Positions 14,591 through 62,749 are shown, counted from the first letter of the stretch. The stretch: 64,000 nucleotides of DNA from Tubulanus polymorphus (GCF_964204645.1 NC_134025.1:5592871-5656870); one strand, 5' to 3'. The notes: generated by a model not told the origin, from the sequence alone. A program made the numbers and translations.

Positions 14591-14940
<350 letters not shown>

Positions 14941-16199
14941 ATACACGAAAAATAAAAATCCCGCAGTAGATCAAAATTATTTATTAACAGTTATCGGGCA
15001 ATTAATTATCTGAAACAATCTGACCCAATTTCCGCGTATGGTTGTAATTAATTATGGCGTTAGTTACGGTATTAATCACGTATATACGTATGCCCTTTAT
15101 CGTAGTTGCTATGAGATGAAGACCACAACATCAGAATCACGTGTTTTATAGAAAAATAACCCGCTATCTCCGCTGAATATAATTCATTCAAATCACGTGC
15201 TGAAAAATGTGAGATCGTTTCAATAAACCGAAATAAAAATTCTGCAAAAAACTGCACCAAACTTATAATATAGGTATGCTGTTTGAATATATATCAGCTT
15301 TCATAAATTTACACGTGCGTAGAATGAACATTTGTTTAATTACTGATTTCAAGTAAGTTGGAAAGATGCATTATCATCTTTGGTTCAGGGTGGGAACAGG
15401 GTATACGGAGGTTGTATCCTTGATCATCGTTGGCCGACGTGAGAGCTTGGTGCGGCGCACGGCTTCACTCCAGTATCACATCAATCATAAAACTGTAGTA
15501 GCACCGCTAATGAACCACTGTGACCGAGGCTTATACTTATCATTTATGTTTTAATTAATGGTGTATTGTGCTATAGCGGCATGTCTCGGAAGATGACGTA
15601 TGGACTGTGACCGATAATTGATCTCGGGTGTTTGAAATACGGCGTCGTGCGATACGCCGAAAACATGCTTAAAAAGCGGTGATTTTTACGACGCTTTCGA
15701 CGCACGCAGGCTAAAGTACGTCGTAAAGAATCGCTCAGAAAATTATATCAATTGATCCGCGAATACATGTACCGGGCATAATTACACCATGACCCGTAGT
15801 AAACAGTAGTAGTTTTTACGACAGGAGCCGCTTTGAATTTTACAATTCTCCAAAGAATCATCATTACATTCTACACGAAATGAAGTATATAATGGAAATA
15901 AGATCGTTGGATGAGTTATAACTTTTATGTCAAAAGAAGACAATACGTATTCACTGCCCTAATGGCATACGCCCAGATATAACCACATTTTCATTGCTAT
16001 CAAACCAAAACCCAGCAGGTTTTTAATCAATATCTCAAGCAACTATTTTGGAATGATATCAAACCGAACCTAGACTAGGTTTCGGTAAATCTGTAAACCC
16101 GATAGAAGGCCGGTAAAGAGTTTGGCATCCGGAATTGGTATTCCGAAACTGTAATACGTTCAATCGAAACCTGCCTAAAATTGTTAATGTATTGTGTTT

Positions 16200-34500: not shown

Positions 34501-37500
34501 CTCGAAAATGACCCGCAGTTTATAATATTGGAACTGATGCAAGGTGGTGACCTACTGTCATTCCTGCGAGTGTCTCGTCCAACATTGGTGAGTATTTCAC
34601 GGGATCTGTCTAGAGTATGTTCACAGTTCAGTTCCTCCATTTTCACTATAAGTATTTCTCATATTTTGCAGAATTGTGCTCCTCTTCTGACATTGCCAGA
34701 TCTCATTAGTATATCAGTAGATGTCGCACGGGGCTGTGAATATTTAGAGGAAATGCATTTTGTTCATAGGTGAGATTTAGTTTATTTTCTTGAGTTATAC
34801 AGATTCATAGCTTTATTTAGGAGGATTAAAGCGCAGATCTGGATTTAATGAAAATAAGGAATTACCGTACACGTTACTTATACTTTATTAACTTTCTATT
34901 TTGAATAGGGATTTGGCAGCAAGAAACTGTTTAGTAGCACCAGCAGCTGGTGGATCGCGTCTGTTGGTGAAAATTGGAGATTTTGGCTTAGCTCGTGATA
35001 TTTATAAAAATGATTATTATCGTAAAGAAGGTGAAGGATTACTACCAGTGCGATGGATGTCTCCGGAATCATTGATGGATGGAGTATTTACTACACAATC
35101 AGATGTCTGGTGTGTAGATTGTTTTTTTTTTGAAGGGATGTGTTTTAATGGTGTTAAACTGTATTACGAATATCTATCTTTTCTTTTAAGGGCATTTGGT
35201 GTATTGGTTTGGGAAGTAATGACTCTAGGACAACAGCCCTATCCAGCACGAACGAATATAGAAGTTTTGCATTTTGTTCGAAATGGTGGTCGTTTAGATA
35301 AACCAGAAGGCTGCCCATCAGACCTGTAAGTTTTATATTTACATGTTCATGCACATGTATTCTAACATGACCACAGATTTCTTATATGCCATTATGATAC
35401 TTTAGATATTCGCTGATGCTGCAGTGTTGGTGTTACTGTCCCGATGATCGGCCGTCATTCTGTTATCTCCGCCAACAGTTACAACAGCTCAGTGATAAAG
35501 CAGCAGAATTTTCAGAGGCATTGCTAATTGGTAGGCTTATGACAGGTAAGACGTGCCTGCATGCATTGAGCACGTTGTTTGAGCCTGGTTTTTAAACGTT
35601 AAAAAAAGTTGTTTAAGGTTCGTTGATGTCTATGTGGCCACGCATGTGTATGTTCGAAAACTCCAGTTCCAAATCACCCGATCTCACTCCGGAGGAAAAT
35701 ACCTCCACAATTGAAAATGGACAATCAATAGCGTTTGATTGAGGGCTTTTAAATGTATAAAATGAATGATTTGTTTATAGAGTGTTAATAATATTTCTTA
35801 GATGTTCATTATGAGATTTTTGTAAAGGATTGTTTTGTTTGGATACTATTTCGCATGTGCTTAGATAGAATGATGAATGTTGACTATTGCATGATTTATT
35901 TGAATACTCTGTTATCAATTCCAAAAATACACTGTTCACTGTGGACTCTATGATCCTTTCTGGTGATACGTTTTATGCCATCGGTACTTTGTATCTGCAA
36001 AACCGTCCTTATGCATCCTATATGTTGTATCTTCGGTCTATATCGTCATAAACTGGTGAAGATCCTTCCGATGTTTCCTTCCTTTCGTTTGAACCAGGGA
36101 TTCTCGTTTCCCTTTAAGTTTCCCTACATTTCCGTTGTCAGGATGATATTCAATGTTGTATCTTCGAAGGAATGCTTATCATTATTCAATGCATCATGAC
36201 TTGGTGGCTACTGTCTAGCATCTGTATGTTGTGAACGCTAAGCGATTTCTTTTCGGATAATTTGGCCTTATTTCTTCTTTAGAGATTTAAATATTTCTAA
36301 TATTTATGACATAGTCTCAAAAATATCTCAAGCCAACTGTTTCGATTCGTTTTCATCGAGGAAAGGATTTTCGAATTACTTATGAGAAAGTTTCAATCGT
36401 GGCAAATTTTTCTATGAAAAAAATCAAATTAATAACGGGACTGAATGCATAGAATTTATTTTATCTGTTGCTCAGGTGGATTTGATAATCTTGCATTTGA
36501 TACGCTGGAGGCCCAGTCTAGCCGTAAAAAGAAATATCCCAATAAATTATGCGTCAACCTTTCACCCAGAAGCAAAAAGAAATTAGGTGAGAATGGACTT
36601 TTGAAATTTGCCGCCAAGTGAGAAGAGCTCTAATCAGAAATCATCTTGAATATTACAAATATTCAACGACTTTAGGTTGTTGCTAAAACTGGTGTAAACT
36701 GGACCTATTTTATGTAATCATTGGTGTTTACCAATGGATTACTTCGCTATGACTGATCTTCACCAGTTTATAGAAAATCATAGACTCTGCAAGATACACC
36801 ATGATAGCACAAATGAAATTTGTTTAGTATAGTTTCGCCCTATTATAAATTGGAATTGAAGTACTAACTTTTCGTTGATTTCAGCTGTCCATATTCCTGA
36901 TTCTATGAAGATTCTTACCAGACGTAAGCATAAATTACGAACGTTGTTCGGTTGTTATGATGATAGTGTTGTACCACAAAGTCCCGTGGGAGATGAGGTG
37001 AGCAAATTAAAGACACAAAAGCTGTGTTTTTCTTACCAAGAGATTTTTCCTTACCTAAGAAATATTGCATTTTACAGTATTTGACCGCACGACATGGACG
37101 TATGAAACGAGCGCTCTCATTTGACAGTAATCAGTTCAATATGGCAAAAGCGCAAGAAGAGGCTGAATGCATACGATTAGATGCGTTGGGGTATTTGAGA
37201 CCGAATCAAGGCGAGATGCCAAAATATCTGGAACTAATCGCAGATCCGACGGCAGCGCCTGCGCAAACTGGTTTGGATAACGCGACGGACAGTGATAACG
37301 ATGATAGCGTTAGTACGCGGATGGGCCATGAGATGACGCCGCCATTATCCGCTGATTCTCTAACACGTTCGCGTAAATCAGCTGAACGAGTAGTAGTCGT
37401 CGATCAGGAGATTATTCCACGCGAATTACAAGGCTCCGAAAGCGTCATTTCGCATCCGCTGAGCTCAAGCGACAGTCAAACGACGATTGGTCCATCGCCC

Positions 37501-38199
37501 GTCAATCGACAGGATTCTGTTCGCAAGAAACATCCTCCGACACGATTGAACGGACTTATCGCCAACATCGACCCTACGCAGACGAAGAGTAACAAAGATA
37601 TAAAAAGCGAGAATGATGAAACTTCCGACTCGATGTGTCTGACGCAGCTTGAAGATATCAGCAGCCCAGAAATCATTCACCACAAACGTAAGCGTAGTTA
37701 CACACCCTTACCGACAAGTGATCTGGACTCCTCTATCAGTAGCGATGACGCGGAGGATGAAGAGGAGGATGATGAATACGATCCATTATCTGGTAGTACG
37801 CAAAGCTGCGGCCAAAGTGCGGGCCGCAAAATCACTGGGACCATTAACTATGCACAATTGGCTCTAAATTCCGAGAGTGACAGCGAATGTGATACGCTCG
37901 GGCGTAGACGGTCCCAGAAACGATCGCGGCACAGTCGGTCGAGTCGACACGCGACAAATGGAAATACTCCAAGACTATCGCGGCCGCAAAGACTTGATTA
38001 TAAGAATAATCGCAGACTAAATGAAGTCGATTACGAATGCACCGGGTTACACGTCGGTGGTAATAGTTACACTCGCATGCCGGTCATGGGAACACGTATC
38101 AGTCCGGGCCATACACCGCGACGTAAAGGTGACTACATGAACATAAGACATGGCGAGGAAAGTGAACTGAAACCAGACGTTCCATGCGTACGAATTTGA
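22380..38199 (+). CDS. ROS1: ROS1/sevenless-family receptor tyrosine kinase, complete gene (36 coding exons, about 2617 aa)
   Basis: Spliced translation gives signal peptide, FN3 repeats, YWTD beta-propeller repeats (YLYWT, LYWLA, LYWTE, LYWSN), TM helix [33 protein letters not shown], then kinase motifs [85 protein letters not shown]. The pattern is strongly ROS1/sevenless-like. All 35 junctions are GT-AG with consistent phase, and total CDS 7854 nt is divisible by 3. Confidence 0.9.
22697..22911 (+). CDS. ROS1: RTK exon 2 (FN3 domain 1)
   Basis: Acceptor ttttacag, encodes [22 protein letters not shown]...YLRPYTRYQ, donor CAGgtaata. Anchored to ORF 22615-22977. Confidence 0.8.
23784..23865 (+). 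CDS. ROS1: RTK exon 3 (FN3-1 F/G strands, FRIVAKIT...)
   Basis: Joins to give YTRYQFRIVA, the FN3 Y.F.V.A motif. Donor GGACgtaagt. Confidence 0.75.
24048..24344 (+). CDS. ROS1: RTK exon 4 (FN3 domain 2)
   Basis: [37 protein letters not shown]...[21 protein letters not shown], donor Ggtgagc. Confidence 0.8.
24539..24661 (+). CDS. ROS1: RTK exon 5
   Basis: Acceptor tctttag, donor TTTGgtaagt, phase-consistent with exons 4 and 6. Confidence 0.7.
25917..26095 (+). CDS. ROS1: RTK exon 6 (beta-propeller 1)
   Basis: [25 protein letters not shown]...[13 protein letters not shown], donor ACGgtaaat. Confidence 0.75.
26154..26169. repeat. Poly(C) homopolymer C16 in RTK intron 6
   Basis: ggaCCCCCCCCCCCCCCCCatattc. 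Confidence 0.9.
26363..26457 (+). CDS. ROS1: RTK exon 7
   Basis: [32 protein letters not shown] matches the ROS1 CDLENC...SYNGY region. Confidence 0.75.
26535..26968 (+). CDS. ROS1: RTK exon 8 (YWTD repeats)
   Basis: [18 protein letters not shown]...[10 protein letters not shown], anchored to ORF 26521-26982, donor CAGgtaaat. Confidence 0.8.
27102..27194 (+). CDS. ROS1: RTK exon 9 (FN3 start)
   Basis: [31 protein letters not shown], acceptor ttgattttcag, donor AAAGgtgagt. Confidence 0.7.
27502..27708 (+). CDS. ROS1: RTK exon 10 (FN3)
   Basis: [18 protein letters not shown]...[27 protein letters not shown]. Confidence 0.8.
27824..28119 (+). CDS. ROS1: RTK exon 11 (beta-propeller 2)
   Basis: [22 protein letters not shown]...[17 protein letters not shown]. 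Confidence 0.8.
28197..28546 (+). CDS. ROS1: RTK exon 12 (YWTD repeats)
   Basis: ...[22 protein letters not shown]...[19 protein letters not shown]... Confidence 0.8.
28634..28797 (+). CDS. ROS1: RTK exon 13 (propeller 2 end)
   Basis: [24 protein letters not shown]...[11 protein letters not shown]. Confidence 0.8.
28908..29083 (+). CDS. ROS1: RTK exon 14 (FN3)
   Basis: [38 protein letters not shown]... Confidence 0.75.
29160..29289 (+). CDS. ROS1: RTK exon 15 (FN3 end)
   Basis: [43 protein letters not shown]. Confidence 0.75.
29387..29886 (+). CDS. ROS1: RTK exon 16 (FN3 + propeller 3 start)
   Basis: ...[25 protein letters not shown]...[23 protein letters not shown], anchored to ORF 29494-29940. 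Confidence 0.8.
29966..30162 (+). CDS. ROS1: RTK exon 17 (YWTD)
   Basis: [43 protein letters not shown]... Confidence 0.8.
30255..30547 (+). CDS. ROS1: RTK exon 18 (YWTD)
   Basis: [28 protein letters not shown]...CSCSALKL... Confidence 0.8.
30634..30804 (+). CDS. ROS1: RTK exon 19 (YWTD)
   Basis: [40 protein letters not shown]...GPHLQPLP. Confidence 0.8.
30979..31193 (+). CDS. ROS1: RTK exon 20 (FN3)
   Basis: [31 protein letters not shown]...[14 protein letters not shown]... Confidence 0.75.
31272..31413 (+). CDS. ROS1: RTK exon 21 (FN3)
   Basis: [47 protein letters not shown]. Confidence 0.75.
31515..31780 (+). CDS. ROS1: RTK exon 22 (FN3)
   Basis: [45 protein letters not shown]...RYSFW. 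Confidence 0.75.
31883..32065 (+). CDS. ROS1: RTK exon 23 (FN3)
   Basis: [36 protein letters not shown]...[22 protein letters not shown]. Confidence 0.75.
32173..32362 (+). CDS. ROS1: RTK exon 24 (FN3)
   Basis: ...[43 protein letters not shown]. Confidence 0.7.
32443..32566 (+). CDS. ROS1: RTK exon 25 (FN3 start)
   Basis: [41 protein letters not shown]. Confidence 0.7.
32651..32823 (+). CDS. ROS1: RTK exon 26 (FN3, membrane-proximal)
   Basis: [58 protein letters not shown]. Confidence 0.8.
32935..33033 (+). CDS. ROS1: RTK exon 27 (transmembrane helix)
   Basis: [33 protein letters not shown] is a 23+ residue hydrophobic run. Acceptor tttttag, donor TCATgtaagt. Confidence 0.75.
33619..33772 (+). 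CDS. ROS1: RTK exon 28 (juxtamembrane; alternative acceptor at 33634)
   Basis: ...[46 protein letters not shown]. Both AGs, at 33618 and 33633, are in frame. Confidence 0.65.
34149..34311 (+). CDS. ROS1: RTK exon 29 (kinase N-lobe: P-loop and VAVK lysine)
   Basis: [55 protein letters not shown]. Confidence 0.85.
34393..34587 (+). CDS. ROS1: RTK exon 30 (kinase: alphaC, hinge)
   Basis: [59 protein letters not shown]... Confidence 0.85.
34672..34769 (+). CDS. ROS1: RTK exon 31 (kinase)
   Basis: [32 protein letters not shown]. Confidence 0.85.
34909..35109 (+). CDS. ROS1: RTK exon 32 (catalytic loop HRDLAARN, DFG, activation loop)
   Basis: [67 protein letters not shown]. Confidence 0.9.
35191..35325 (+). 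CDS. ROS1: RTK exon 33 (kinase C-lobe)
   Basis: [46 protein letters not shown]. Confidence 0.85.
35406..35545 (+). CDS. ROS1: RTK exon 34 (kinase end)
   Basis: [28 protein letters not shown]..., donor ACAGgtaaga. Confidence 0.75.
36885..36997 (+). CDS. ROS1: RTK exon 35 (C-terminal tail)
   Basis: Phase-consistent junction with exon 34 (G + CT). Acceptor tttcag, donor GAGgtgagc. Confidence 0.6.
37078..38199 (+). CDS. ROS1: RTK exon 36 (long acidic/Ser-rich C-terminal tail, stop TGA 38197-38199)
   Basis: 374-codon open frame in phase with exon 35. Low complexity with Tyr motifs (YMNI, DEYDPL, YAQL, YECTG). Confidence 0.6.
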   Translation, partial: YLTARHGRMKRALSFDSNQFNMAKAQEEAECIRLDALGYLRPNQGEMPKYLELIADPTAAPAQTGLDNATDSDNDDSVSTRMGHEMTPPLSADSLTRSRKSAERVVVVDQEIIPRELQGSESVISHPLSSSDSQTTIGPSPVNRQDSVRKKHPPTRLNGLIANIDPTQTKSNKDIKSENDETSDSMCLTQLEDISSPEIIHHKRKRSYTPLPTSDLDSSISSDDAEDEEEDDEYDPLSGSTQSCGQSAGRKITGTINYAQLALNSESDSECDTLGRRRSQKRSRHSRSSRHATNGNTPRLSRPQRLDYKNNRRLNEVDYECTGLHVGGNSYTRMPVMGTRISPGHTPRRKGDYMNIRHGEESELKPDVPCVRI

Positions 38200-41100
38200 C
38201 ATTTTTCTCATATATTCCCAGTTGTGATGCTCATTGTTTTTGTTGATTTCAGGCATATTGTTGATTGTTGTCTGAACACATATTTTATACTGGTCTCAGC
38301 CGCTGGTTGTCTGTTTTACGATTCAGACAGACAGTCGGGAGTTAAGATCAGAACGTTGTTATAGTGTGCATGTCAAAATTATTCGATGGTGTATTGAAAC
38401 ACACAACAAGGTTTCAGATTGATCTAATCTGGTGGCTTAGTCGAGATGTGCAGTGTGAAAATAAAGCAACTCGATAACACAATGAAATGGAGTATTCGTT
38501 GCTTTTTACTTTGAAATTCTGACAATTGGATGCTATAAATCCTAAATATCCAATAAAAAAGTTTGAAAAAAAGCTTGTGAATGTCATACAGCAAAACATA
38601 TTTGATAAATCGTTCCATGAGCTTCATATTCTTGGTCATGAGTAAACTGAAAAGCATTCTGTAACATCTTCGTTTTATATTATTGAAACTAATCGTAACA
38701 ATCAATCTTTGCATCAATTTCATGAATACGTATATTGTCCTTGGTTTTCTATGTAATTTTTTGTACTCGGTGAACGCGACAACAAATTTCGGGACGAAGC
38801 TTTCCAAAATTAGCTGAGAGCAGCTCCCACGCACAATAGGACCATTTCATTGTACTGCTGAATTCACGTAAGGCAACTTTTCAAAAAAGACCGAAGTACC
38901 GCTTGCATATTATGATGTATTCAGTGTCACTGTAATTGATTGTTTTTATCGTCAATTTGCCTTAATGATGCATGGCAGCGTATTGAAAAAATGTGTCTGG
39001 ATGGGTTGATCTTCAATTTCAGTTCAAGTTCAGTAACGTATAGTTGATCAATTGTAGGTGATCTCATTCGGTGAACCCTATAGTGTGATACGTGTATATG
39101 GGCATATTGGCTTAGAATTGATAGCTACTCGTTTTTGTTCGGTTCTTTCATTCTTTAAAAGATAATCCAAATTTTAAACTTAGCATAAGAGTACTACTAT
39201 TGTATATTTCTTCTTACGATTGTTAAAATATTGATAAGTTTTTTGTTTCGAATTTAGCGCATGCATACTGCTTTTTAAGTGTTGAATAATAAAGAAAATG
39301 TAATGAGAGAATATGATAAATGAATTTCCTTCCAAATCATATAATATAATATGTCTTTTTATCTGGATGTATACTGATCTAATCTTACGAAAGTCGAGCG
39401 TAAATTGTGTAAAATAGAGAAAATTTGTAAGTATAAATCCCATCCAGAAATTTTCATTCAGAAATTATGTTGTTCGAATGGAGGCATATGTGCATGTCAA
39501 AATTTAGATCGTGATATGTTAGTGAATATGGGTGTATTGCTTTAGAAAGGAGAGGCCAGTAATTAAGACGCTGTACACAATTTATGTTGTCTTTTTGGTG
39601 AAATCGTCAATGTATCATTGTATTTGCATAAAGGATACTTTGGTTGTAGGTGAAATTTGAGGATCACCATGGTGAATTCGATTTCAATGAGAAAAAAATT
39701 AAAGACATTAACATTTATATCATTGTTACTATATGATATGAAACTGCAGAGCATAAAGATAAATTTGAAACAAAAACTTGTTAAAAAATCCATTCAATTG
39801 CGCTAACTTGTTGAGAAGGCCCACGCTGTAGAAATAAATCTGATTACCGTTGATAAATCTACTGATTTGGATAGAATTTCTGCTCTTTCCTTTTGGCGTT
39901 AATAGAAACACTCATTGAATGAAAAGTTATTAGTGATTAAGGCAATCAAACTCCAATCGAAAATGTGATGTGACAAACTGTCTCGAAAGAGGAAACACAT
40001 AGTTTCTTCAGCTTGTAAGAAATTATTGGTCATCGGTGATAATTGTACATAAAGCCTCTTAATTAACAAGCTGTATAAAACCTGTGTCTAGTAATGATAT
40101 TAATGAAGATAATAAATTGTCGTATAGTTTGTATATCGGTGGTGTGAACACGAATGTTTCGTCGCTACGAACAGGGATTTCTAAGCTCCCAATCTCCCAG
40201 TTACAAAGTAATCGATGATGAATATAGTCAAAAGTGTAAATGTACTATATAAATTGTATAATTATTATAAGGTGTATACATTTTCCTATCTATAGTACAT
40301 ATTATATAACATAATATATACACGTATATACATGTGCATCTGCGCGCATCGTATAATATTGTAATATATATTTTATTGTGTATTGGGTCTATCGGGTACT
40401 GTATAATCAAAATATTGAGAAAGTGGCATAGAATGAAAAATGACAAGGTAAACTAAGTGGGAAGTCATTGTTTTTTCTGTTGCTGGTTACGAAGTGAACA
40501 GTTGTATTGTATTGTTTTCTTATTTCGATAATATATCATTTGTTTATGTGATTATCTGCTCAAAAACAGGTAATTATGAAGCTTGTTTGGACGCGAGCGT
40601 CCCTCACCAACGGGCTTGATAATTATCTGTACACAATCAGCATGACCTGATATTGTGGACCAGTATTTGGCATTGATGACTCACCACAATAGATCCATAA
40701 CTAAGAACTCAAAATGTAAAGTACTACAAAAAAAACAGCAACGGCGAATGCTGTGCCTTTAAAGGGTTATGTTACATTTTGGTATTCTATGTTATTTTTG
40801 GTTTTGTATGGATTATATATACGTAGTTCGTTGTGTAATGATTTTTGCTCAATTGCAGCGCCGGGATGTACATTTTTTTGCATAAACGGTAGCTGTAAGA
40901 TTATTACTTATTTTGTTTAGATATTACTCATTATATTGTGTACATGTGTGTATATTTTAAGGGTATATATATATTTGTGGTGGAATTCGTTATGCCCTTT
41001 TAGTGCTGCTGTCAGTTTGAAAACAAATCAGATATAGATTGGAACAAATTGGCTCATGGTTATAAACCTACTCCTGTATTGTTACGATTACTGAAAGAGA

Positions 41101-43408
41101 CAGGTCCTGGTTCAAAAGTCATGTGTGCAACAATTGGCGTTAGTCCTTTTAGACAATCACGTATAAATTGATTTGCCATCAATACCTGGGACGATAGTTC
41201 CAGTAATCAAACAAGGTTTGTTTTCTTTCAACTGAAAAATTGTATTTTTTCCACGGATTCTGAGCTTTTGCTTGTTTATTCAGACAAACCTTTCATCCCT
41301 CATCGTTCCACAGTTGGCTCAACTAACACCCAGTTCAGTGAATTTTTACAGTATCCTGTGTTGCAAATATCTTCACACATCATCAAATGAAATATTGTAT
41401 CGTCACCAGCACTAAAAGGGATTACTATCTTTTTGTAGTCAATTTTTATACATTTTGTTAAAATTTACTTTATGTACCTGAATTAATACTCAATATTCTG
41501 CCAACGATTTGTTTTATGCTCAGTAGTCGGGAAGCTAATTTGAATGCCTTTTACTTCGCTATAGTCAGTATTATCAGCCACATCCAACTTGCGGCTTGAT
41601 TTAACTCTCTGAAATGACTTCAGACCTCTGTCTTCTTGAATTATGAGAAATTTGACAACTCTTGACGTGATTTTTCTCTGTATAAAATCTAAAATACTGT
41701 GTACAAGTATAACGTCTTTCGAATAACTATAATTCTGTAAATTCTGCCTTTCTTCAGCGTAATTGTCTTCGATCATGTTACTCTAAATAGGTAAAATATA
41801 ATAGATTATCGGTGGGCTTTGCATTATATCTGCAAGTAAATAACACTGCGTATCTTTTGCTTAAACAACGCTCATATCTGAAACACCTATTATACTTATT
41901 TGAACCCTGCAATGCCGATTCTTTTTTTTTCTGAAAAAAAGGAAAGAAACTTTTTATGGCCGTAGTCTAAAGCAAATGGTGCTTTTGTATTGCATTTATA
42001 ATGTGTGTAGAATTGGGTTTTCAAAGCCAACTGCTGCATTTTACATCACTGCCAAAACTGGTGTGCTGTACATGTACATAATTTATCAGAATACGTGTGT
42101 GCGTACGTATTGGTGACTATTCTCTTTTCAAGGACGCTTCAGGCCCTACACTGCATCCATTGTGATTTAGATCTTCACCGCGTGTGTACCGACGTCAGGC
42201 ACAAATGTGTAATCAGACGAATGATTAGTATAAAAAGGGGCTTACTCCGGGACTTAACAAAACTGGATGATTTGGCATTCGAAAGGTATTTGATTACCAA
42301 ACTGAATCAGTCAGTTTTATCCGGACGGGCCTCCAGCCACTAACACCACTCCACTGAACCATGGACTCTAAAACGAACATGACTGAACCAAAACAGGAAT
42401 ATTGTCATCAGAGAATGTAAAACCTTACACTTTGCGAAAATAGGACGTAAAACTTCTACGTCTTTATCGACACTCAAATGGAGAGGATGCCTTTAGTCAA
42501 CTCTGAGAAGGGTCACCAATATAGTCAATACTTCGAATCCTCATTTGTTGATTTTTGTATCGTTGTCTTGTGGTTTTTATCCCACCTTATGTTGTACATA
42601 ATATTGATATGAGTTGTATAAAATGGAAATGAAATCATAAATTGAATTCAGTGTCAATTTTCAAGTGGTTGATTAATTTAATGTTACCGAGTCGCACTAT
42701 TACTAAATAAAATTATATAGTGTCATTGTATAGTTTTGTAAAAAGGTGCTTCGTCCACCTTTCATTCAAGCATATGAATAAAGTATATGAAAAAAGGAAT
42801 ACTCGTTGTTTATTCCTCGTGGTTCAGAGCCAAAATATTCAAATATGTGATGGTTGAACAGATCTGAAGAACTTTCTATTGTGATCTATTTATTAAGTTA
42901 TGCAGAGGGGGTGGTATATTTCAGTTCATCTTATTTTGATATTTATCATTCATACAAAATTTTGCCTAATTGAAAATAAATAATTGAATCTCAGTATCCG
43001 TGAAGTCTTCATAAAATGATAAATCCCACGATTGAAATTTGACGAGAATAAATTCTATTCAAAATATACTACTACCCTTCATTAGTTACTCAAATGCTAA
43101 TTAAATACCTCTGCTCCAATCGAAACATGCACGGTAGTTTAATGGATATTTAACTATCTTAATTACAGTAACAGTGCAAGGCTCTGTTTACGTTGATGAA
43201 GATGGTAGTAATTAATCGCTATTGGAGTTGAAGCTTTTTCTGGCACACTTATACTAATTACTATGATAACAAGTCACAGTCGGTGACACGCTACGAGTGA
43301 CGAAACAGTAATTAGTGACGCCCTGCCATTCACGTTGTTAACAGTTCATTAGTTACTTAATTAATTTAGATAAATTGCCAATCAACCGGTCAATCGATGA
43401 TCAGGTGC

Positions 43409-43416
43409 TATATATA
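43409..43416 (+). promoter_or_regulatory. TATA box (TATATATA) upstream of the intronless gene
   Basis: About 30-40 bp upstream of an Inr-like TCAGTT (43446-43451) and about 85 bp upstream of ATG 43498. Confidence 0.45.
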
Positions 43417-43445
43417 TTCTAGATAACAAGTGTGAAATTCATCAT

Positions 43446-43451
43446 TCAGTT
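43446..43451 (+). promoter_or_regulatory. Initiator-like element TCAGTT (putative TSS)
   Basis: Matches the arthropod-type Inr TCAGT. Confidence 0.35.
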
Positions 43452-43497
43452 CACAGAACTCGTATAGACAACATAGAAAATAGCCGAGCGTTTCAAG

Positions 43498-44196
43498 ATG
43501 GCGAGTAATTCTGACAAGCGAACGTTTCGATTTCCTGGATTGAAGACTCTACGAAAGATTAAGTCGTCTTCCAAGATGAATAAAAACAGAAAAGCGGTGA
43601 AATTCGAAAGACAGAAAATCCAACCGCAGCCGTCACCAGTGTCGTGCAGTTCGGATAGCGGCAACGCGTCTATGTTTGAAAGCAGCTCCAATTCTTCGAT
43701 AGAATATTCGGTACGGGACATCGAACATGAACTGCGAAACAAAAAGTTCGACAGAATCCGCGAGAAGTTGAAGAATCTCAAGAGTAAAGACCAAGCTATG
43801 GTGCATAAAATCTTCGAATTACGGCAGAAGAATTCGCCAGTCCGCCATCACCAAAAAGTGGCACTGCCTGTAGTGAGTCCAAAGCATGTGGCAGTGCCTG
43901 TAGTGAGTCCAAAGCGTCTGTATTTGACGGTGCAGCGTCCGCGACCAATTTGTTCTTCGACGCCGATGCATCGACCGATCAGTTGCCAGATGAACGAACA
44001 GCGAAAACCCGTAAACGCAAATGCGGCTGTACTAGGCTCTCCGATCACTGGAATGATATCTAAATTTGGAATTCGAAGACCGGCGAAGCAGCCAGCGGCC
44101 AGTCGTCCGACATCGGTACCAGTTGCCAAACGAGGAGTCTACTACCGACCAGTAACGTATTTCGATGAACATGGACTAAAATGTACAAGGTGTTGA
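43498..44196 (+). CDS. Hypothetical intronless gene, 232-aa basic Ser/Pro-rich protein
   Basis: 699-nt ORF with ATG in good context. TATA box and Inr-like TCAGTT 50-90 bp upstream, ATTAAA signal about 115 bp downstream of the stop. No recognisable domain. Internal 30-bp tandem duplication (VALPVVSPKH/VAVPVVSPKR). Confidence 0.5.
   Translation: MASNSDKRTFRFPGLKTLRKIKSSSKMNKNRKAVKFERQKIQPQPSPVSCSSDSGNASMFESSSNSSIEYSVRDIEHELRNKKFDRIREKLKNLKSKDQAMVHKIFELRQKNSPVRHHQKVALPVVSPKHVAVPVVSPKRLYLTVQRPRPICSSTPMHRPISCQMNEQRKPVNANAAVLGSPITGMISKFGIRRPAKQPAASRPTSVPVAKRGVYYRPVTYFDEHGLKCTRC
43861..43920 (+). repeat. 30-bp tandem duplication (x2) inside the intronless ORF
   Basis: gcactgcctgtagtgagtccaaagcatgtg / gcagtgcctgtagtgagtccaaagcgtctg. 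Confidence 0.85.
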
Positions 44197-44308
44197 AAGA
44201 TATGGGACGTCTCTCATCAGGGATATTAATTATGCGGTGCTATGTACAAAGAACTTTCACAAACTGTGCATTATATTAATGTGACGATATGAAAATTGTA
44301 AATATTTT

Positions 44309-44314
44309 ATTAAA
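44309..44314 (+). terminator. Putative polyadenylation signal ATTAAA for the intronless gene
   Basis: About 115 bp after stop codon 44194-44196, in an AT-rich 3' flank. Confidence 0.3.
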
Positions 44315-44583
44315 AGAAAATATAACAAAATATACACAAGATATGAAAATGAATTAAATTCTTTCGTAATTATTGTATCTCTTCTGGCGTATATATCTAG
44401 GCTTTTGGTGTTGCCGAGGTTTTATATTCTGATTTAATTACCGGCTTGTACTGGTATACAAATATTGTATCGGAGGAGCCCGCGGGATGAACCAAGTTTT
44501 TTTTCTATATTATGTTCTAGAATGAAATGCATGGTCATATCACCTTGACTGGTAACATAGTAACGGTTGTGATGTGAAAATAA

Positions 44584-46143
44584 TTGCATAGCCGCAAAAT
44601 GTCGGCACCAGAAACAAAGTTGTTATCATTGAAGCGTTATCTGACAAATACTGAACGCGAAAATGAAATGGCTCTCAGGGGACGAGACCCCGATGATTCA
44701 TTTTTCGGGGCAAGAGTCATCGAGTGCCAACAAAATGTGGTCGAAGAAAGAAAACTGGCCAAAGAATTAGATGGTTTGGAAAGACAGAGAAAGATCGCGT
44801 TGGCTAGACTTAACAGTTCTCAACACATTCTTAAACTGACCTGTCGTAAGTATAATAAGGACAGAAAAAGCTCGACTACAATTATAAAGAAAAAAAGCAC
44901 TCAGGATCTTGGGGATACAGGAGATGATAGCTTCGTGCAGGTTGGGTTCCATTTTAAAGCCAACGGAGATCCTAGGCCAAGCGAGGGAGTTAGATTGTCA
45001 AGGTCGATATGTCGTCTGAAAAGCCAAATAAACGATATCAATCAAGCAATATCGACCTCATCGATAAAACACGATCACAATGTGGGGTCTTTTCGTAAAC
45101 TATCGAGCGATCCCGATACTGAGTCAGCGGAACAAGGGGAAATGATGAACGACGAGGAGTACCAAAAAGAAATGGACGAAGTTGAAAAAATGGTAACTGA
45201 ACTTATTAAAGCTGCGAAACGGCATCGAAGTACTACATTAGTAAAGAAGAACAACAAAGGTTCAGACGGAAAGCCGATGGTGGGAAAACATCAGTATCTC
45301 AGAGCTCATGAGAACGAATATGTCTGGCACTTAGAATCTGGTTCTGCTAGAAGGAATAACGACAATACAGGAGTTACCGCCGGTAAATTGTCTTTGACTC
45401 CGTCCGACCTTTACCGACCATCGTATACATCAAAAGCGACCCGAGGAAGCAGGGCAGCAGTTCTGGATCCGAAAGCGTCGTCCCTTTACAAAAATATTCA
45501 CCATACTAAAGCGCAATGTTTGGCATGCGAATATAGATTCAAACAATCAACGCATGAAGAAGTAAGCAAGGGGTCCTCGACGGTCAATGTTCAACCAACA
45601 CCTTCGTCTATGATGCGTAATCCAAGCTGTATTCTTAGAGCGTGGACTCCTTCTTCGGGAAGCCTTCACCACATCGACAACGCATCTTCATCGGGTTTAC
45701 TCCATCGTAAGGGGAGCTCTCGACATGCCGGTTTCAGCAATTCATCGGTAGCATCCTCATCGAACGAGTCAATAGACAGCAGATCGTCAACAACCAGTGC
45801 ACACCTGGCAGTCCCGGGTACGGGAGATTTACGGAAACAAATTCTGAAGAAGATGGTAGTTGCTAGAACGTTAACTCCAGATTCTAACGATAGTAGGTCC
45901 AGATCGCCGTCACCATTGGTCAGTCCTAGGGACGAACAACCGAGAGCTTCATCGTGTCCAGGGCAAGTTGATGCCGGTCATGGCGATACATTATCGATAG
46001 GACATACACCAAGCCCACCACTGGTCAGTAACGTATCAATAAAATTAAATGATCAAGATGAAAGTGAACATCTATTACACAGTCGATCCTCTCATAAATG
46101 GAAAAAACGATGTATATCGACGAAGGAATTGAAACACCAAGCG
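44584..46143 (+). CDS. Hypothetical gene exon 1 (disordered Ser-rich, N-terminal coiled-coil-like region)
   Basis: 1.6-kb ORF (536 codons in table). Donor GCGgtaagc at 46144 joins in phase 0 to the 46278 exon. Confidence 0.45.
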
Positions 46144-46277
46144 GTAAGCGATCATCAAGTCATGGACATTTCATTTAGAATATCTCTTATGTAATAATAG
46201 ATCCACAACCATTTTCATTATCAACATGGACCCATGCTAGACCATATACTTGTCAACCAGGAAAAAATTTTTTGTAG

Positions 46278-46577
46278 GAGGTAGCCACTCAAAGCAGTTT
46301 CATGAAAGTCAACGAATTTCTGCATAAGATTGACGACGACCTAAAACATCAGGAGACGGACGATCGATTCACGGCGAACAGATCGGGCTTATCACCAGCT
46401 CAAACTCAGAACGTATTCAGAAATACACAAAATCGTTATCAACAAGATATACAACGACATTCAACTGGACAGCTATCTAAAGAAATGGAAGCTCTGAAAA
46501 ACTGCCGATATCTGCGCATTTATGTCCCGAAGGCTGAACGAAACAAAAAAGTAGGAAGCTTCGACGCTATACTTTGA
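46278..46577 (+). CDS. Hypothetical gene exon 2 (terminal)
   Basis: Acceptor ttttgtag, open frame EVATQSSFMKVNEFLHKIDDDL... to TGA at 46575-46577. Confidence 0.4.
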   Translation, partial: EVATQSSFMKVNEFLHKIDDDLKHQETDDRFTANRSGLSPAQTQNVFRNTQNRYQQDIQRHSTGQLSKEMEALKNCRYLRIYVPKAERNKKVGSFDAIL

Positions 46578-47268
46578 TATCAATTCTGCATAAAATCTAA
46601 TAGAATCTTAAAAGCATTACGACGCTTATGCAAAAAATTATGGAAAAACTATTATTTGACACAAACAAGACAATCTTGTAACTCATCTTCAGTGGGTTAG
46701 AATTCATACGTATCGACCTTGCCAAATTAATGCAAGGAATCAAATCAATCCTCTAAGTTTGATATGCTAAGATTAAGATGGTTTCCGATCGACTTCCTGG
46801 CATTGGGACTTTTCGATAATTAAGCAAAGGTCCAAGAAAAAACTGTCGCAAAGAAATAATTAACTAATAACTAGTATATCTCCAGATTAATCATACTTTT
46901 TATAATTTATTTCGAAATTCTGTACACTGTCATTGAGTACACATTGTCAATCATTTTCAAATATTGAATCATTTTCCATTTCATTTTCCATTCATTTTAA
47001 AGCCATTTGGCACATTTCATTCAACATAAATAATCATATTCCATTCATAGCTATATACAAAGCTATGTATTCATTTCAAATAAATAGTTCATTTCACTAG
47101 AAAAAATATATAATGTTTTATACAAATTTATCACAAATGTTAATGGATGAAATAGACATCAGTAATAAATAAATACATTTTAATTGCAATTTCATTAACA
47201 TTCTATACATTTGAGATAAAGATCAATTAATATAAATTTGTAGTTATTTCATCTCTGTCATTGTTTGA

Positions 47269-57265
<9,997 letters not shown>

Positions 57266-58427
57266 TCCCAGAGATGAATTGAAAGACAACTCGGCAACAA
57301 ACTGAACGTCATTATTGGAAATTCCACCATTCTGAAAACAGACCAAGTTAATAGTTTGCGAAATGGATTTTTTCAAAGCTTAGTTAATATACCGATAGAT
57401 AAGCTTAGAATACCCAGTCTTACTCCTGAATGAAATATTCATTTATGATAGTAACTCAGGCGTACCTGTTCATGTTGTTGCTTGTCTTTTCTTTGGTTAT
57501 CAATATCATTTGAAGTGCTGTTAAAGCAAAAAGCCAGAAAAGATTATTATCTTTACACATTTGATCTTTTTTGGCGTGATGAGTTTCAATAATGGGTCAA
57601 ATCATTACTTTATGTTATTCACTTTTGTGGGATATGTTTGGTTCACAGGTATTCGACCAAGAAATCTTCTCTTTCCTCCTTCCATCGGAATATTCTTAAA
57701 TCATAAGCCAAACTCAAGCATCATCTCTATCCTTACTTGGATGAAAAACGAAAAGGTTAGAACTACAAGAAATACAAATTCTAATCAACCTTTCTCTTTG
57801 CTGGGTACAAGTTTTTCTGACTATTGCCAGGAGGCACTGTTGTATGTCATTAGACTGTTGTAGTCAAAGTGCAGCATCAGTCAGCGAGGCCGGGGCATGA
57901 TGGTTGTGTTCTGATATTGGATTACTAAAAAATCAAGTCAAGCATGTCAAGCGGTACTATTTCATTGGACAGTTGGATAGCAACAATAATGGGCCCTGTG
58001 TCGTGAAAAGCCCTGTGATATATCCGACCATGTCTGAGTGTAGCCACCCATCACCCATACTGTACTGCTGGTATCTATGACCATCATCTATGGATTGGAC
58101 ATTGGCTGTTGGGCGCAGACATGGTTTTATTGGTTGTATTGTGGTCCGCTGTGTGTGGACTGTGCACAGGGGCTCATCACGATAGCTGGGGGTAAAAATC
58201 AAAGATTTGACCCAGTATCCTAGGTACCACCTATAAAAAAAGGTCTTTTTTTTGGCGGTAAGCTTTTTATAATCGGAATCGGATGGGCTTATACCAACGT
58301 GGAAATATCCGATCGTGAAACTAAACCACAGACAGGTTACTTTAACTTACTGACTACTACTTGTCACCCGTGTGTGGATGATTCACGATTGCCTTATTCA
58401 CATTCAGCCTTATATATACAAAACCGC

Positions 58428-59713: not shown

Positions 59714-59953
59714 TCATTTTTTGAAAGATGATAAGGTTGTGAATTGTATACGACGCTTCTGTTTCATCAGGTCCTCCTGAGTCAGCGTCGATTGACTAGA
59801 TTCATCTCCGGAAAGTTCAAGAACAAGGTGTAAATCTTTCTCTTCCTCATTATGAACCGTTGCACCTCCAAAATCAGTTGTAGAATGTTCCTGCTTCGGG
59901 GTTTCGCTCTTGACAATTGAAGGAGGTGCTAAATTCGGTTTAGCACTAGGGGA
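59714..59953 (-). CDS. CHAF1B: CHAF1B last exon (stop TGA 59714-59716)
   Basis: 79-codon open frame after acceptor ctttcag. [21 protein letters not shown]...[14 protein letters not shown]. Confidence 0.65.
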   Translation of the reverse strand, partial: SPSAKPNLAPPSIVKSETPKQEHSTTDFGGATVHNEEEKDLHLVLELSGDESSQSTLTQEDLMKQKRRIQFTTLSSFKK

Positions 59954-62749
59954 CTGAAAGATGAAATAACAGTTTCAATTTTCTAGAAGATAAATTTTTT
60001 AGCAATGATAAGTTGTTTTCCAAGAAAATGGATTGAATTTTTACCTTTGACGATAAAGTAATTAACGAGACGCGTCGTTTACCACTTGAAGCATCTGAGA
60101 CAGTACTAGACCTACATGTAGTTGGTTTCCTTGAAAAAATATGAAATCACAATCATACATTTGTTAAACAAATCAATGGTCAATTTCTTAATTCCAAACT
60201 AATGCTCACTGTACTATTTGAACATCTGGACTATCTGATGTTTGAGCACCGGGGATTTTAGTGTTTTCCTTTTGTTGTTCGACAGGTTCGAGCAATTTTA
60301 CGCTTTCAGTTGCTCCTTCCATCTAGAATTCAAAGGAGCTCATGAATAAACATCGAATCAGATATAAATTCTTTTTCACAATTAGTTAAGTACTTAGTTA
60401 AGATTTTTCTGAAAATTTGTTCACCTTTTTCAGATCATTTTCCTTTGTTTTCATCTTCTCTTCAGATTCTGACTGCGGTTTGTACGGTTTTCCTAATTCT
60501 CCCTCTTGAAACGATATGAAAGAACAATAGCCATCTGTCGAAGATATGGCTAATATTCTACCATCCGATGACCTAAAATTTAGATAATACCGACCAAGAA
60601 AACATAAAATCTGCCTTCCGACTAAATGCTAGCAGAATTTTAAACAAATGGAGATGCTCATACCAAGCCAAGTCACTGAGTTGATGGTAGTGAATATTTG
60701 TAACCCGAAGAAATGGAACCGCTTGCTGTGTGTCATACAGTAAAACTGCATCTTCAGTTGCAACGGCAAATATTATTCGGTATGGAAGACTGAAATAACG
60801 AAATCATTATATTAGCTCTTTAATAGATTAAGTTACGATAAATTTGCATGAAAGTTTAAACAGTAAGTATCTACCAAAATAACGATTGATATTTTTCCCA
60901 CTCTTTTCGATTATTGTTTTCCACATCTTCGGCTTTTTCTGGATAAAAAAAAGATATTTTACACTTTAAATTGATAATTGGAAAAGTAATTCTTTTTTCT
61001 AAATTTTACAAAAAAGGATCAATGCATAGAAAATGTTTTAATGAACATGTTAGAGCACATTCTACAAAATGTAGGTCTGTTTATTGACAGTTTGAATTGT
61101 ACACTAACCATCCTTTTGTCTGGGAATCTTCCGTAATTCAAATAGTACAGGCGAACATCTTACAATCAATGAAGCTTTACCATCGACAGGCAGATGTAGA
61201 GCTGGTCTGTTTAAAAACAACAGAAATCGATGCCAAAACCAATTCAAAGGGTGATGTCAAAAGATAATGTCAAAATACCATCATCCAAAAAACCCTAAGA
61301 ACTCACCGAGAAAATGATCCTCTTGTGAATATATATGAAGTGTTCAAAACTGAATCACCACTTTCGATACAACCGGCCGGGGTAATCAATAACTCTCCAT
61401 CAGGCGAAAAACACAACCGACGGAAAAATGATTTCATCGAATCGTCGTGAAACATTCTCGACAATTTCGATTTTCCTTTGTCGGCCGACGTGACGAGTTT
61501 CGTCACTTTTTGAATGCATTGTTTCGTATTGACATTGTATATTCTGCAACACCTGGAATATCATTGAAACCTAACTTAAGTTCATACATTTTATAGTAAA
61601 ACTACTACTTACGACAATCATTTATCATCTATGGATTAAAATTGTCTTACTTTCGGTGATTAATATTTACCTATCACAACTCAAAGTAGCTACGTATTGA
61701 TTCAAAGGATCCCACGCAACTCCCTGTACAAAACTCTTGTGTTCTTTCAGTATACTTATGCTTTTGCCTGAATTGAAGATAATGAATTCATGAAGGACTG
61801 GGTAATAAAATTAGACCGATAACCGACTGTTAGCCAGCGGCGAGTAACTCACCTTTTTTCACATCCCACATTATAGCGCTATTATCTACCGAACCAGAAA
61901 TTAGGAAATTACTGTCTGCCGACCAGCACAAATCATAGATATCCTCAATATGACCCCTGAAACGTTTAAACAAGACATCTCATCCCGAAATCAATTTTGC
62001 TGCAAATCGGAACATATTTCATTGGCAGATTTTAACATCGTAAATTCTCTAAATTTTCTATCCATTGAGTTAAACCAGGGCTAAAGTAATGATACACCAT
62101 CAAGTTATATATGGAACATTATTAACCTGAGGGTTTTGATAACACTCCAATTTTCCAAGTTCTCATCATCTTCGTCTTGAAATATACTCGGAGCGGCTGC
62201 ACTGTTGTCATTCTGTTGCCACAACAGTATCACAGAATCTACAAAGAACGACACAATGTATCAGAAGAGCGTTTTGAAAATATTGAGGGCGGCCTATTCT
62301 CAACTCACAAGATACCAAGTCTTGAAAGTATCTATTTTAATGAGACCCAACAGGTTGTTCACTTATTTTTTCAAAACAAAACAAGAAATTCAACTTACCA
62401 TCTCCACCAGATGCCAATATCTCACCTGAAATAAATTTTAAGAAAAAAACAATTAATACAATGCATCTATTAACTAAGAGTTTCGAGGAAAAATCCAATC
62501 AATCAGGCATATTTTACCATTTGGTGAAAATCTAACAGCATTCACTGCCCGTGTATGTCGTGTTAGAGTTGCCAGAAACTGAGTACAAGCTTGTCCTTCA
62601 TCATCAATTATAACTCGCCAGATACGGATATTCTTGTCGGTACCCGATGTCACCAATCTTGTGATTTCTCCGTTTTTATCGTGCTGAAAATCGATACTGT
62701 AGATCGGGTCTCTGTTATGCCATGAGATTTCTGGTGTTACCAACTTCAT
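59714..62749 (-). CDS. CHAF1B: Chromatin assembly factor 1 subunit B (CAF-1 p60, WD40) gene
   Basis: The N-terminus [36 protein letters not shown] and the internal block [47 protein letters not shown] closely match human CHAF1[23 protein letters not shown] and [18 protein letters not shown] are also conserved. Eleven exons mapped, and one C-terminal segment (about 60112-60424) is unresolved. Confidence 0.85.
60045..60111 (-). CDS. CHAF1B: CHAF1B penultimate exon (tentative; the exon upstream of it is unresolved)
   Basis: Good acceptor and donor (TCAAAGgtaaaa) and open frame [22 protein letters not shown] in phase with the last exon, but the preceding junction phase could not be reconciled. 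Confidence 0.35.
60425..60572 (-). CDS. CHAF1B: CHAF1B exon 10
   Basis: [50 protein letters not shown]. Confidence 0.75.
60664..60789 (-). CDS. CHAF1B: CHAF1B exon 9
   Basis: [42 protein letters not shown]. Confidence 0.75.
60876..60933 (-). CDS. CHAF1B: CHAF1B exon 8 (tentative)
   Basis: Phase-forced choice of acceptor. Poorly conserved segment. Confidence 0.4.
61109..61206 (-). CDS. CHAF1B: CHAF1B exon 7
   Basis: [33 protein letters not shown]. Confidence 0.7.
61307..61543 (-). CDS. CHAF1B: CHAF1B exon 6
   Basis: ...[51 protein letters not shown]. Confidence 0.8.
61671..61767 (-). CDS. CHAF1B: CHAF1B exon 5
   Basis: [32 protein letters not shown]. Confidence 0.75.
61853..61956 (-). CDS. 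CHAF1B: CHAF1B exon 4
   Basis: [35 protein letters not shown]. Confidence 0.75.
62127..62238 (-). CDS. CHAF1B: CHAF1B exon 3
   Basis: [37 protein letters not shown]. Confidence 0.75.
62399..62425 (-). CDS. CHAF1B: CHAF1B exon 2 (27-nt micro-exon)
   Basis: Encodes GEILASGGD, matching human [10 protein letters not shown]. Flanked by a tatttcag acceptor and GATGgtaagt donor. Confidence 0.7.
62518..62749 (-). CDS. CHAF1B: CHAF1B exon 1
   Basis: ATG at 62749, donor AATGgtaaaat. Confidence 0.85.

Follow-up and report, generated by a model that had tools for sequence, protein, structure and literature searches.

Gene content of the ROS1–POLQ interval

In the 64,000-nucleotide stretch of DNA analysed here (the window), a ROS1-like receptor tyrosine kinase (RTK) gene on the plus strand and a DNA polymerase theta (POLQ) gene on the minus strand converge, leaving between their stop codons a gap of 9,069 nt (38200–47268) that contains two plus-strand ORF genes, hereafter g1 and g2. 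The features of the interval and its borders are:

37024–38199, plus strand: ORF containing the last coding exon of the RTK gene (Ser-rich tail), stop codon at 38197–38199; the kinase and fn3 exons lie upstream
43409–43417, plus strand: TATA-like element of g1, TATATATAT, 31–39 nt upstream of an Inr-like A at 43444/43448; a consensus match only
43446–43451, plus strand: Inr-like TCAGTT of g1
43498–44196, plus strand: g1 coding sequence, an intronless ORF from the ATG at 43498 to the TGA at 44196, 232 aa, pI 10.7
43858–43917, plus strand: in-frame internal tandem duplication of 30 nt in g1, VALPVVSPKH / VAVPVVSPKR
44309–44314, plus strand: candidate poly(A) signal ATTAAA of g1, 113 nt past the stop codon
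44599–46143, plus strand: g2 exon 1 coding sequence, 515 aa, ATG at 44599; motifs placed by the family alignment are ECQQN (aa 42–46), GFHFKANGD (116–124), YLRAHENEYVWHLESGSARR and CLACEYRFK (307–315)
46144–46277, plus strand: g2 intron, 134 nt, phase 0, donor GCG/GTAAGC, acceptor TTTTTTGTAG/G
46278–46577, plus strand: g2 exon 2 coding sequence, 99 aa and stop, with K-V-N-E-F-L and the C-terminal LKNCRYLR (CRYLR at 46503–46517)
47269–47538, minus strand: last coding exon of POLQ (DNA_pol_A C-terminus), stop codon at 47269–47271

Sequence comparison identifies the left flank as a ROS1/sevenless-type receptor tyrosine kinase with an fn3-rich ectodomain: its plus-strand exons match the Pfam families fn3 (2e-14 and 8e-7) and PK_Tyr_Ser-Thr (1e-37 and 4e-24), and among PDB entries human ROS1 scores best (E = 3e-50), with IGF1R (1.5e-39) and ALK behind it. 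The right flank is, by its domain composition, DNA polymerase theta, since the minus-strand exons at 47269–57376 encode a helicase-like N-terminus (DEAD, 1e-5), a helical domain (POLQ_helical, 7e-34) and a family A polymerase C-terminus (DNA_pol_A, 9e-12). Rfam and tRNA scans detected no RNA genes in the 36–49 kb region, and neither g1 nor g2 has a paralogue within the window. The interval has a normal invertebrate gene content, with one real gene of an unnamed family and one small basic ORF.

The longest stop-free run spans 239 codons in g1 and 536 in g2 exon 1, compared with maxima of 222 codons in 500 local dinucleotide shuffles and 226 in 60 whole-window shuffles. When all ORFs of the window are ranked by codon log-likelihood, g2 comes third and g1 fifth (37 bits), the rest of the top 11 being RTK and POLQ exons. 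In g2, the coding frame has a codon log-likelihood ratio (LLR) of +0.21 per codon and the remaining frames all score below zero, and codon-position periodicity reaches 5.8 bits in frame versus -57 and -85. Its product is a basic, Ser-rich protein of 614 aa, and no canonical poly(A) signal was found for it before position 47079. A sequence-only reading of this DNA had claimed that RTK and POLQ face each other 9 kb apart, that two plus-strand genes devoid of recognisable domains lie between them, that the smaller one is intronless and encodes a basic 232-aa protein with TATA/Inr and ATTAAA signals, and that the larger one has two exons; all of this was borne out, with 614 aa for the larger product instead of about 620. 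No Pfam domain exceeded the threshold in g1 or g2, sub-threshold noise consisting of ADPrib_exo_Tox (17.9 bits, cut-off 23.4), Longin_2 and SR-25.

The larger gene belongs to a conserved, unnamed family

An exhaustive phmmer search of 1.84 billion representatives was carried out with one query, and all matches fell on its g2 part. It retrieved nine g2 relatives (best E-values 6.6e-41 and 1.9e-30; Owenia, 2.3e-11; Saccostrea, 3.6e-4), which are found in the annelid Owenia, in Saccostrea oysters and in seven eukaryotic contigs, and a metagenome scan added two further loci. The matches were recovered by tblastn of g2 against the homologue loci (3e-45 to 1e-8). The named relatives, Owenia fusiformis CAH1798540.1 and Saccostrea XP_061169298.1 / XP_062613648.1, are both uncharacterized, and literature searches for the homologues' accessions and the SRA run gave no result. 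Searches with Pfam found nothing common to more than one member of the family, and its profile, like g1, had no match in the PDB. A SCHIP-1_C match (0.0065) in a single member was judged to be coiled-coil noise.

Conservation is concentrated in four short motifs, ECxQN, GFxFxxNG(D/E), CxACExRLK and a C-terminal L-x-x-CRYLR, separated by fast-evolving linkers. Nine columns are invariant in 10/10 sequences (E42, C43, Q45, N46, K52, G116, F117, N122 and G123) and four more are conserved in at least 90% of them (C307, A309, C310 and K315, within CxACExRLK, which reads CLACEYRFK in g2). The pattern C[RK][YF]LR of the C-terminal motif occurs only six times in the six-frame translations of the eight homologue loci (L001–L008) and the window, once each in the window (46503), L001, L002, L003, L004 and L006, and always on the strand of the main exon and 3′ of it, with no CRYLR within 10 kb downstream in the oyster loci. 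In the window, in the metagenomic contig L002 and in the Owenia locus L001, the start of exon 2 precedes the ‘FL’ of K-x-x-x-F-L by exactly 14 residues, so that the phase-0 intron interrupts the three genes at the identical residue. The Logan contig L006 has no intron at this place and carries an Illumina adapter at its start, which identifies it as cDNA. As to synteny, neither ROS1 nor POLQ nor any ORF resembling g1 was found within 10 kb of a g2 homologue.

On these comparisons, g2 is a real gene maintained by selection, and the unnamed family to which it belongs, found in annelids and bivalves at the least, has no Pfam entry. The sequence-only reading had regarded it as a possible lineage-specific orphan, an idea contradicted by the homologues in other phyla, the invariant motifs, and the conserved C-terminal exon and intron position. 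The same reading had proposed a search for purifying selection in orthologues, and the outcome was positive: dN/dS between the two Saccostrea orthologues is 0.127, so the oyster genes are under purifying selection. More distant pairs gave pN 0.21 versus pS 0.79, the latter being saturated.

Predicted structure and possible function of the g2 protein

AlphaFold2 (AF2) with the family alignment, in which the P0001 row was used as deposited (with TGA read as Trp and both ends wrong) in place of the spliced L002 protein, predicts for g2 a long α-helix at residues 44–99 with pLDDT 93–96, which begins at the invariant ECxQN, and assigns values below 50 to 385 of the 614 residues. Mean pLDDT across the g1 and g2 models is 49–55, with no globular domain. 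The earlier description of g2 as a disordered Ser-rich protein with a helical N-terminus is in agreement with this model. From composition and predicted disorder alone, g2 is interpreted as a disordered, probably phospho-regulated scaffold or adaptor, in which the long helix would serve for self-association or docking, the short motifs would bind partners and the Ser-rich linkers would be phosphorylated as a means of regulation.

The small basic ORF upstream of g2

Most likely, g1 is a small, taxonomically restricted and fast-evolving gene for a basic protein, which would be transcribed from its own TATA/Inr promoter. The implied 5′ UTR of ~50 nt contains no upstream ATG, and the start codon lies in the context AAGATGG (A at -3, G at +4). 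The protein is rich in Ser (12%), Lys (11%), Arg (9.5%) and Pro (8.6%), and its charge, together with SPxK/R motifs, suggests a nuclear or nucleic-acid-associated role. The AF2 model contains only short helices, predicted with low confidence. No homologue of g1 was found among the 1.84 billion representatives, in Pfam, in the PDB or in metagenome contigs, an exact-sequence look-up gave no match, and hhalign detected no relationship between g1 and the g2 family. Word-index protein searches with g1 and with g2 were both empty, and equally so for the RTK-tail exon used as a control; close relatives of the organism are therefore missing from these databases and the word-index nulls are uninformative.

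The most serious alternative is that only g2 is real and that g1 does not function as a coding gene. The ORF would then have arisen by chance or very recently in a GC-richer patch, for instance within a non-coding or upstream g2 transcript, or would be a decaying pseudogene. The failure of every search to find a homologue and the low AF2 confidence fit this possibility, as does the modest excess of the ORF over the shuffle maximum (13–17 codons). Codon-position periodicity is weak (-4.7 bits in frame 0 versus -9.3 in frame 2) and in the N-terminal half it favours frame 2, and in the GC-richer C-terminal half overlapping frames at 43800–44060 also score well by codon LLR. Against it, a run of 239 codons was reached in 0/560 shuffles, by codon LLR the g1 frame clearly outscores the five others (+0.26 versus -0.28 to +0.02), the TATA, Inr, Kozak and ATTAAA elements follow one another in a coherent order, and the internal duplication, the units of which are 93% identical with both of their two differences non-synonymous, keeps the frame. 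We consider a non-coding g1 unlikely, albeit not to the point of neglecting it.

One transcription unit or two?

Could g1 and g2 be parts of a single transcription unit, expressed as a bicistronic mRNA or as an operon with trans-splicing and driven by the g1 promoter? The two genes lie on the same strand with only ~290 nt between the g1 ATTAAA and the g2 ATG, a pattern scan gave no strong Inr for g2, and a possible acceptor (TTGCATAG) is located 9 nt upstream of the g2 ATG. However, g1 carries its own poly(A) signal, the g2 homologues stand alone elsewhere without an upstream g1-like ORF, and the leader of the cDNA contig L006 is just 80 nt long. Moreover, reading of the sequence upstream of the g2 ATG points to a TATA-like element at 44506 and an Inr-like one at 44535, with a 31-nt spacing. 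A shared unit is accordingly quite improbable.

The idea that g1 is a retrogene, processed from a parent gene with introns that lies elsewhere, had also been raised, and g1 is indeed compact and intronless. We found no positive evidence for it: no parent family or paralogue appeared in the databases searched or in the window, no A-tract follows the ATTAAA, no direct repeats indicative of a target-site duplication flank the gene (43400–44350), and g1, unlike a fresh retrocopy, comes with a TATA/Inr of its own. This origin is highly improbable. That g1 and g2 are both lineage-specific orphans, as initially proposed, fits the empty word-index and Pfam searches with either protein but deserves almost no credence, given the uninformative word-index null (its RTK-tail control was empty too) and the cross-phylum homologues, conserved motifs and conserved intron that refute it for g2.

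We therefore favour, with a probability of about 0.6, the interpretation of the gap as two separate protein-coding genes in plus-strand tandem, which RNA polymerase II would transcribe, g2 being conserved and g1 likely restricted. A bolder version, to which we give somewhat less than even odds, is that g2 and its relatives form an undescribed family at least as old as the annelid–mollusc split, possibly specific to Spiralia and possibly representing a new adaptor module (with its four invariant short motifs, long helix and conserved intron), and that g1 was recently born just upstream, de novo or through very fast evolution.

The reclassification of the larger gene from orphan to member of a conserved, unnamed family is of modest value and has no bearing on any long-standing open question. 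It provides a first description of the g2 family, covering its motifs, the structure of its genes, selection and predicted disorder, from which a Pfam entry could be started and which could help in annotating spiralian genomes, and it leaves the small basic ORF g1 as a candidate taxonomically restricted gene.

Comparison with known relatives and analogous proteins

The nearest relatives of g2 are the eukaryotic contigs P0001/L002 (ENA ERZ17100446) and P0002/L006 (Logan SRR25726911), with 33–37% identity (E = 7e-41 and 2e-30). Both have in common with g2 the motif YLRAHQN(D/E)YFWHL-TGSAR and the C-terminal L(K/R)(N/E)CRYLREY, and in L002 also the intron position.

The Owenia fusiformis protein (UniRef A0A8J1TDV4, ‘unnamed protein product’) is close to g2 in length (608 aa) and has the same N-terminal R-x-LTQSEK, ECQQN, GFRFxSNGD, YLRAH and CVACELRLK motifs, as well as a C-terminus with the FL motif and LKDCRYLR. 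Its gene likewise consists of two exons, with the phase-0 intron at the same residue, although this intron measures 2.4 kb versus 134 nt in g2, identity between the proteins is only ~22–29% with unalignable linkers, and the gene lies next to Fibrinogen_C and MFS_1 genes, unlike g2, which is flanked by ROS1 and POLQ. The oyster proteins, encoded by Saccostrea echinata LOC133178594 (XP_061169298.1) and S. cucullata LOC134275379 and annotated as ‘uncharacterized protein’, are shorter (426 aa) and ~22% identical to g2, and their annotated models stop just past the FL motif; they share with it ECPQN, GFRYHANGD, FLRAHS, CIACQYKLK and K-V-K-R-F-L.

Beyond this family, coiled-coil, serine-rich, intrinsically disordered scaffold proteins offer a functional analogy and not a family relationship. 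Although neither Pfam nor the PDB links g2 in sequence to any named family, it shares with such proteins the combination of a long helix and Ser-rich disordered linkers bearing short conserved motifs.

Setting and gene content of the gap

The window is eukaryotic, with a GC content of 33-43% and short introns. On its left flank, plus-strand exons of a ROS1-like receptor tyrosine kinase (RTK) gene match fn3 (2e-14 and 8e-7) and PK_Tyr_Ser-Thr (1e-37 and 4e-24), human ROS1 being the top solved-structure match of the kinase exon (E 3e-50; IGF1R, 1.5e-39). On the right flank, minus-strand POLQ matches DEAD, POLQ_helical (7e-34) and the DNA_pol_A C-terminus (9e-12). From the end of the last RTK ORF and the POLQ stop it follows that the two genes converge over 9,069 nt between stops, in agreement with the approximately 9 kb of the sequence-only reading, and the two plus-strand ORF genes which that reading placed between them, here g1 and g2, are both present.

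Features of the gap between the RTK and POLQ genes (window coordinates)
End at 38199, plus strand: last ORF of the RTK gene
43409-43417, plus strand: TATA-like TATATATAT of g1, consensus match
43442 and 43446, plus strand: Inr-like TCATTC and TCAGTT of g1, consensus matches
43498-44196, plus strand: g1 CDS, 232 aa, pI 10.7, rich in S, K, R and P
44599 (ATG)-46143, plus strand: g2 exon 1, donor GCG/GTAAGC
Between 46143 and 46278, plus strand: g2 intron, 134 nt, acceptor TTTTTTGTAG/G
46278-46577, plus strand: g2 exon 2, full product of 614 aa, pI about 9.5
47269-47271, minus strand: POLQ stop

Several other features accompany these genes. Upstream of POLQ and on the same strand lies an N-terminal WD40 exon similar to CAF-1 p60/CHAF1B (62474-62749, minus; Beta-prop_CAF1B_HIR1, E 1e-29), of which the ORF 59717-59974 (minus) may be a later exon. 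Three plus-strand ORFs in the region 6486-8035 (6486-6848, 6927-7265 and 7859-8035) have positive coding scores and lack a Pfam match; as 5' exons of the RTK gene, or as part of a separate gene, they would be accounted for. A microsatellite of ~400 nt at about 14580-14975, of the (TA)n / (TATG or TACA)n type, generates artefactual poly-YI ORFs on both strands. In the spacer between the RTK gene and g1, an ATG ORF of 97 aa (41486-41782, minus), on the strand opposite to g1 and g2, has a codon-position periodicity (5.6 / -17.9 / -14.1 bits) like that of real exons of similar size and a codon log-likelihood ratio of 11 bits; it has no match in Pfam or PDB, and the gap may thus contain another small gene or exon besides g1 and g2.

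Coding potential and transcription signals

Both ORFs are real and non-random. Their stop-free runs (536 codons for g2 exon 1 and 239 for g1) exceed the longest found in dinucleotide shuffles (222 in 500 local and 226 in 60 whole-window shuffles). With a codon log-likelihood trained on RTK and POLQ exons versus local non-coding DNA, the two rank third and fifth among all ORFs of the window, the remainder of the top 11 being exclusively RTK or POLQ exons, and their in-frame scores (+0.21 to +0.26 bits/codon) are exon-like (0.07-0.33 for real exons, -0.14 to +0.09 for non-genic ORFs). A composition-independent codon-position test supports the g2 frame strongly (5.8 vs -57 and -85 bits) and favours that of g1 weakly (-4.7 vs -9.3 and -48 bits). 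The starts of g1 and g2 share a reading frame (coordinate mod 3 = 1), with 402 nt between g1 and exon 1, probably by coincidence, since stops intervene and the homologues start at the g2 Met.

The TATA/Inr and ATTAAA signals claimed for g1 are all there, their layout being one of consensus matches and no proof of function: the leader of about 50 nt lacks an upstream ATG, the start context is AAGATGG, and ATTAAA lies 113 nt 3' of the stop. For g2, a pattern scan detected a TATA at 44390 and no Inr; reading of the sequence adds TATATTA (44506) and TCATATC (44535), spaced 31 nt, use of which would leave a 5'UTR of about 60 nt. The first AATAAA or ATTAAA 3' of the g2 stop is at 47079, so the g2 3'UTR may overlap that of POLQ.

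A conserved family containing g2

Neither protein has an above-threshold Pfam match, as anticipated by the absence of recognisable domains, and a word-index search of 5.8 billion clusters returned zero matches for both. The equally disordered Ser-rich RTK tail exon, used as control, was also empty; all that can be read from these nulls is that the collection lacks the source organism and its close relatives. Exhaustive phmmer with g1 and g2 concatenated retrieved nine proteins at E 1e-3 or better, all nine aligned to the g2 part, g1 remaining without a match. They include Owenia fusiformis CAH1798540.1 (annelid) and 'uncharacterized protein' entries from the oysters Saccostrea echinata and S. 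cucullata, the others originating in assemblies of ENA and Logan. Two further loci were obtained by scanning JGI metagenomes with a pattern.

Alignment of the family reveals invariant (E42, C43, Q45, N46, K52, G116, F117, N122, G123) and near-invariant (C307, A309, C310, K315) positions that define the motifs ECxQN, GFxFxxNG(D/E) and CxACExRLK; closer relatives also share YLRAHxNxYxWHLxxGSAR. In the ENA locus ERZ17100446 (L002), a separate downstream exon matches the g2 C-terminus (tblastn 8e-4). C[RK][YF]LR occurs exactly six times in six-frame translations of the window and the eight fetched loci (L001-L008), always on the coding strand and 3' of the main exon (window, Owenia, L002, L003, L004 and L006). 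From the start of exon 2 to the 'FL' of K-x-x-x-F-L the distance is exactly 14 residues in the window, L002 and Owenia, whose exons encode aa 1-469 and 470-608. This shared intron position validates the two-exon model and shows the gene structure to be older than the annelid split. The deposited L002 gene call (71-1897, P0001) takes five in-frame TGA as Trp, which makes both ends of its product wrong, the N-terminus being overextended by 47 aa. The real protein begins with MATSRIV, and splicing joins its main exon to one at about 2626-2865.

The Logan contig SRR25726911 (L006) lacks the conserved intron and carries an Illumina adapter at its start (GACGTGTGCTCTTCCGATCT, positions 1-20); it is thus an RNA-seq-derived cDNA and points indirectly to expression of a family member. 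Purifying selection is apparent between the two Saccostrea orthologues (dN 0.045, dS 0.35, omega 0.127); in more distant pairs synonymous sites are saturated, with pN well below pS. Neither ROS1/POLQ synteny nor a g1-like ORF was detected within 10 kb of the g2 homologues. Family members gave no consistent Pfam match, the family profile found nothing in PDB, and a literature search with the homologues' accessions found no paper. As judged from these homologues, g2 adds a member to a family that is conserved yet unnamed and uncharacterised.

Predicted structures

AlphaFold2 (AF2), with a 13-sequence alignment as input, yielded a mean pLDDT of 48.9 for g2 (385 of 614 residues below 50), a long helix at 44-99 (pLDDT 93-96 over residues 50-80) and shorter helices at 185-213 and 508-540. 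The product is thus predicted to be intrinsically disordered, as proposed, with helical and short-motif islands. Most plausibly, it would act as a phospho-regulated disordered scaffold, docking via the long helix and short motifs. For g1, the single-sequence model contains helices at 72-112 and a small C-terminal hairpin (mean pLDDT 54.5).

Status of g1 and nature of the gap

No relative of g1 was found in any protein, metagenome or PDB collection searched; it is not related to the g2 family, nor does the window contain a paralogue of it. It carries an in-frame 30-nt tandem duplication (43858-43917). We consider g1, a candidate orphan, to be a real, taxonomically restricted gene for a small basic protein with a probability of about 0.65. 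The alternative of an ORF that is very young or has no function, a reading compatible with its lack of relatives and weakly favoured frame, seems less likely. An origin as a retrogene finds no support, as neither a poly(A) tract nor flanking direct repeats are present. The sequence-only reading was therefore half right: the gene arrangement and two-exon model stand, whereas g2 is not a lineage-specific orphan and the retrogene idea lacks support. With g1 and g2, the gap has a gene content that is ordinary for an invertebrate.
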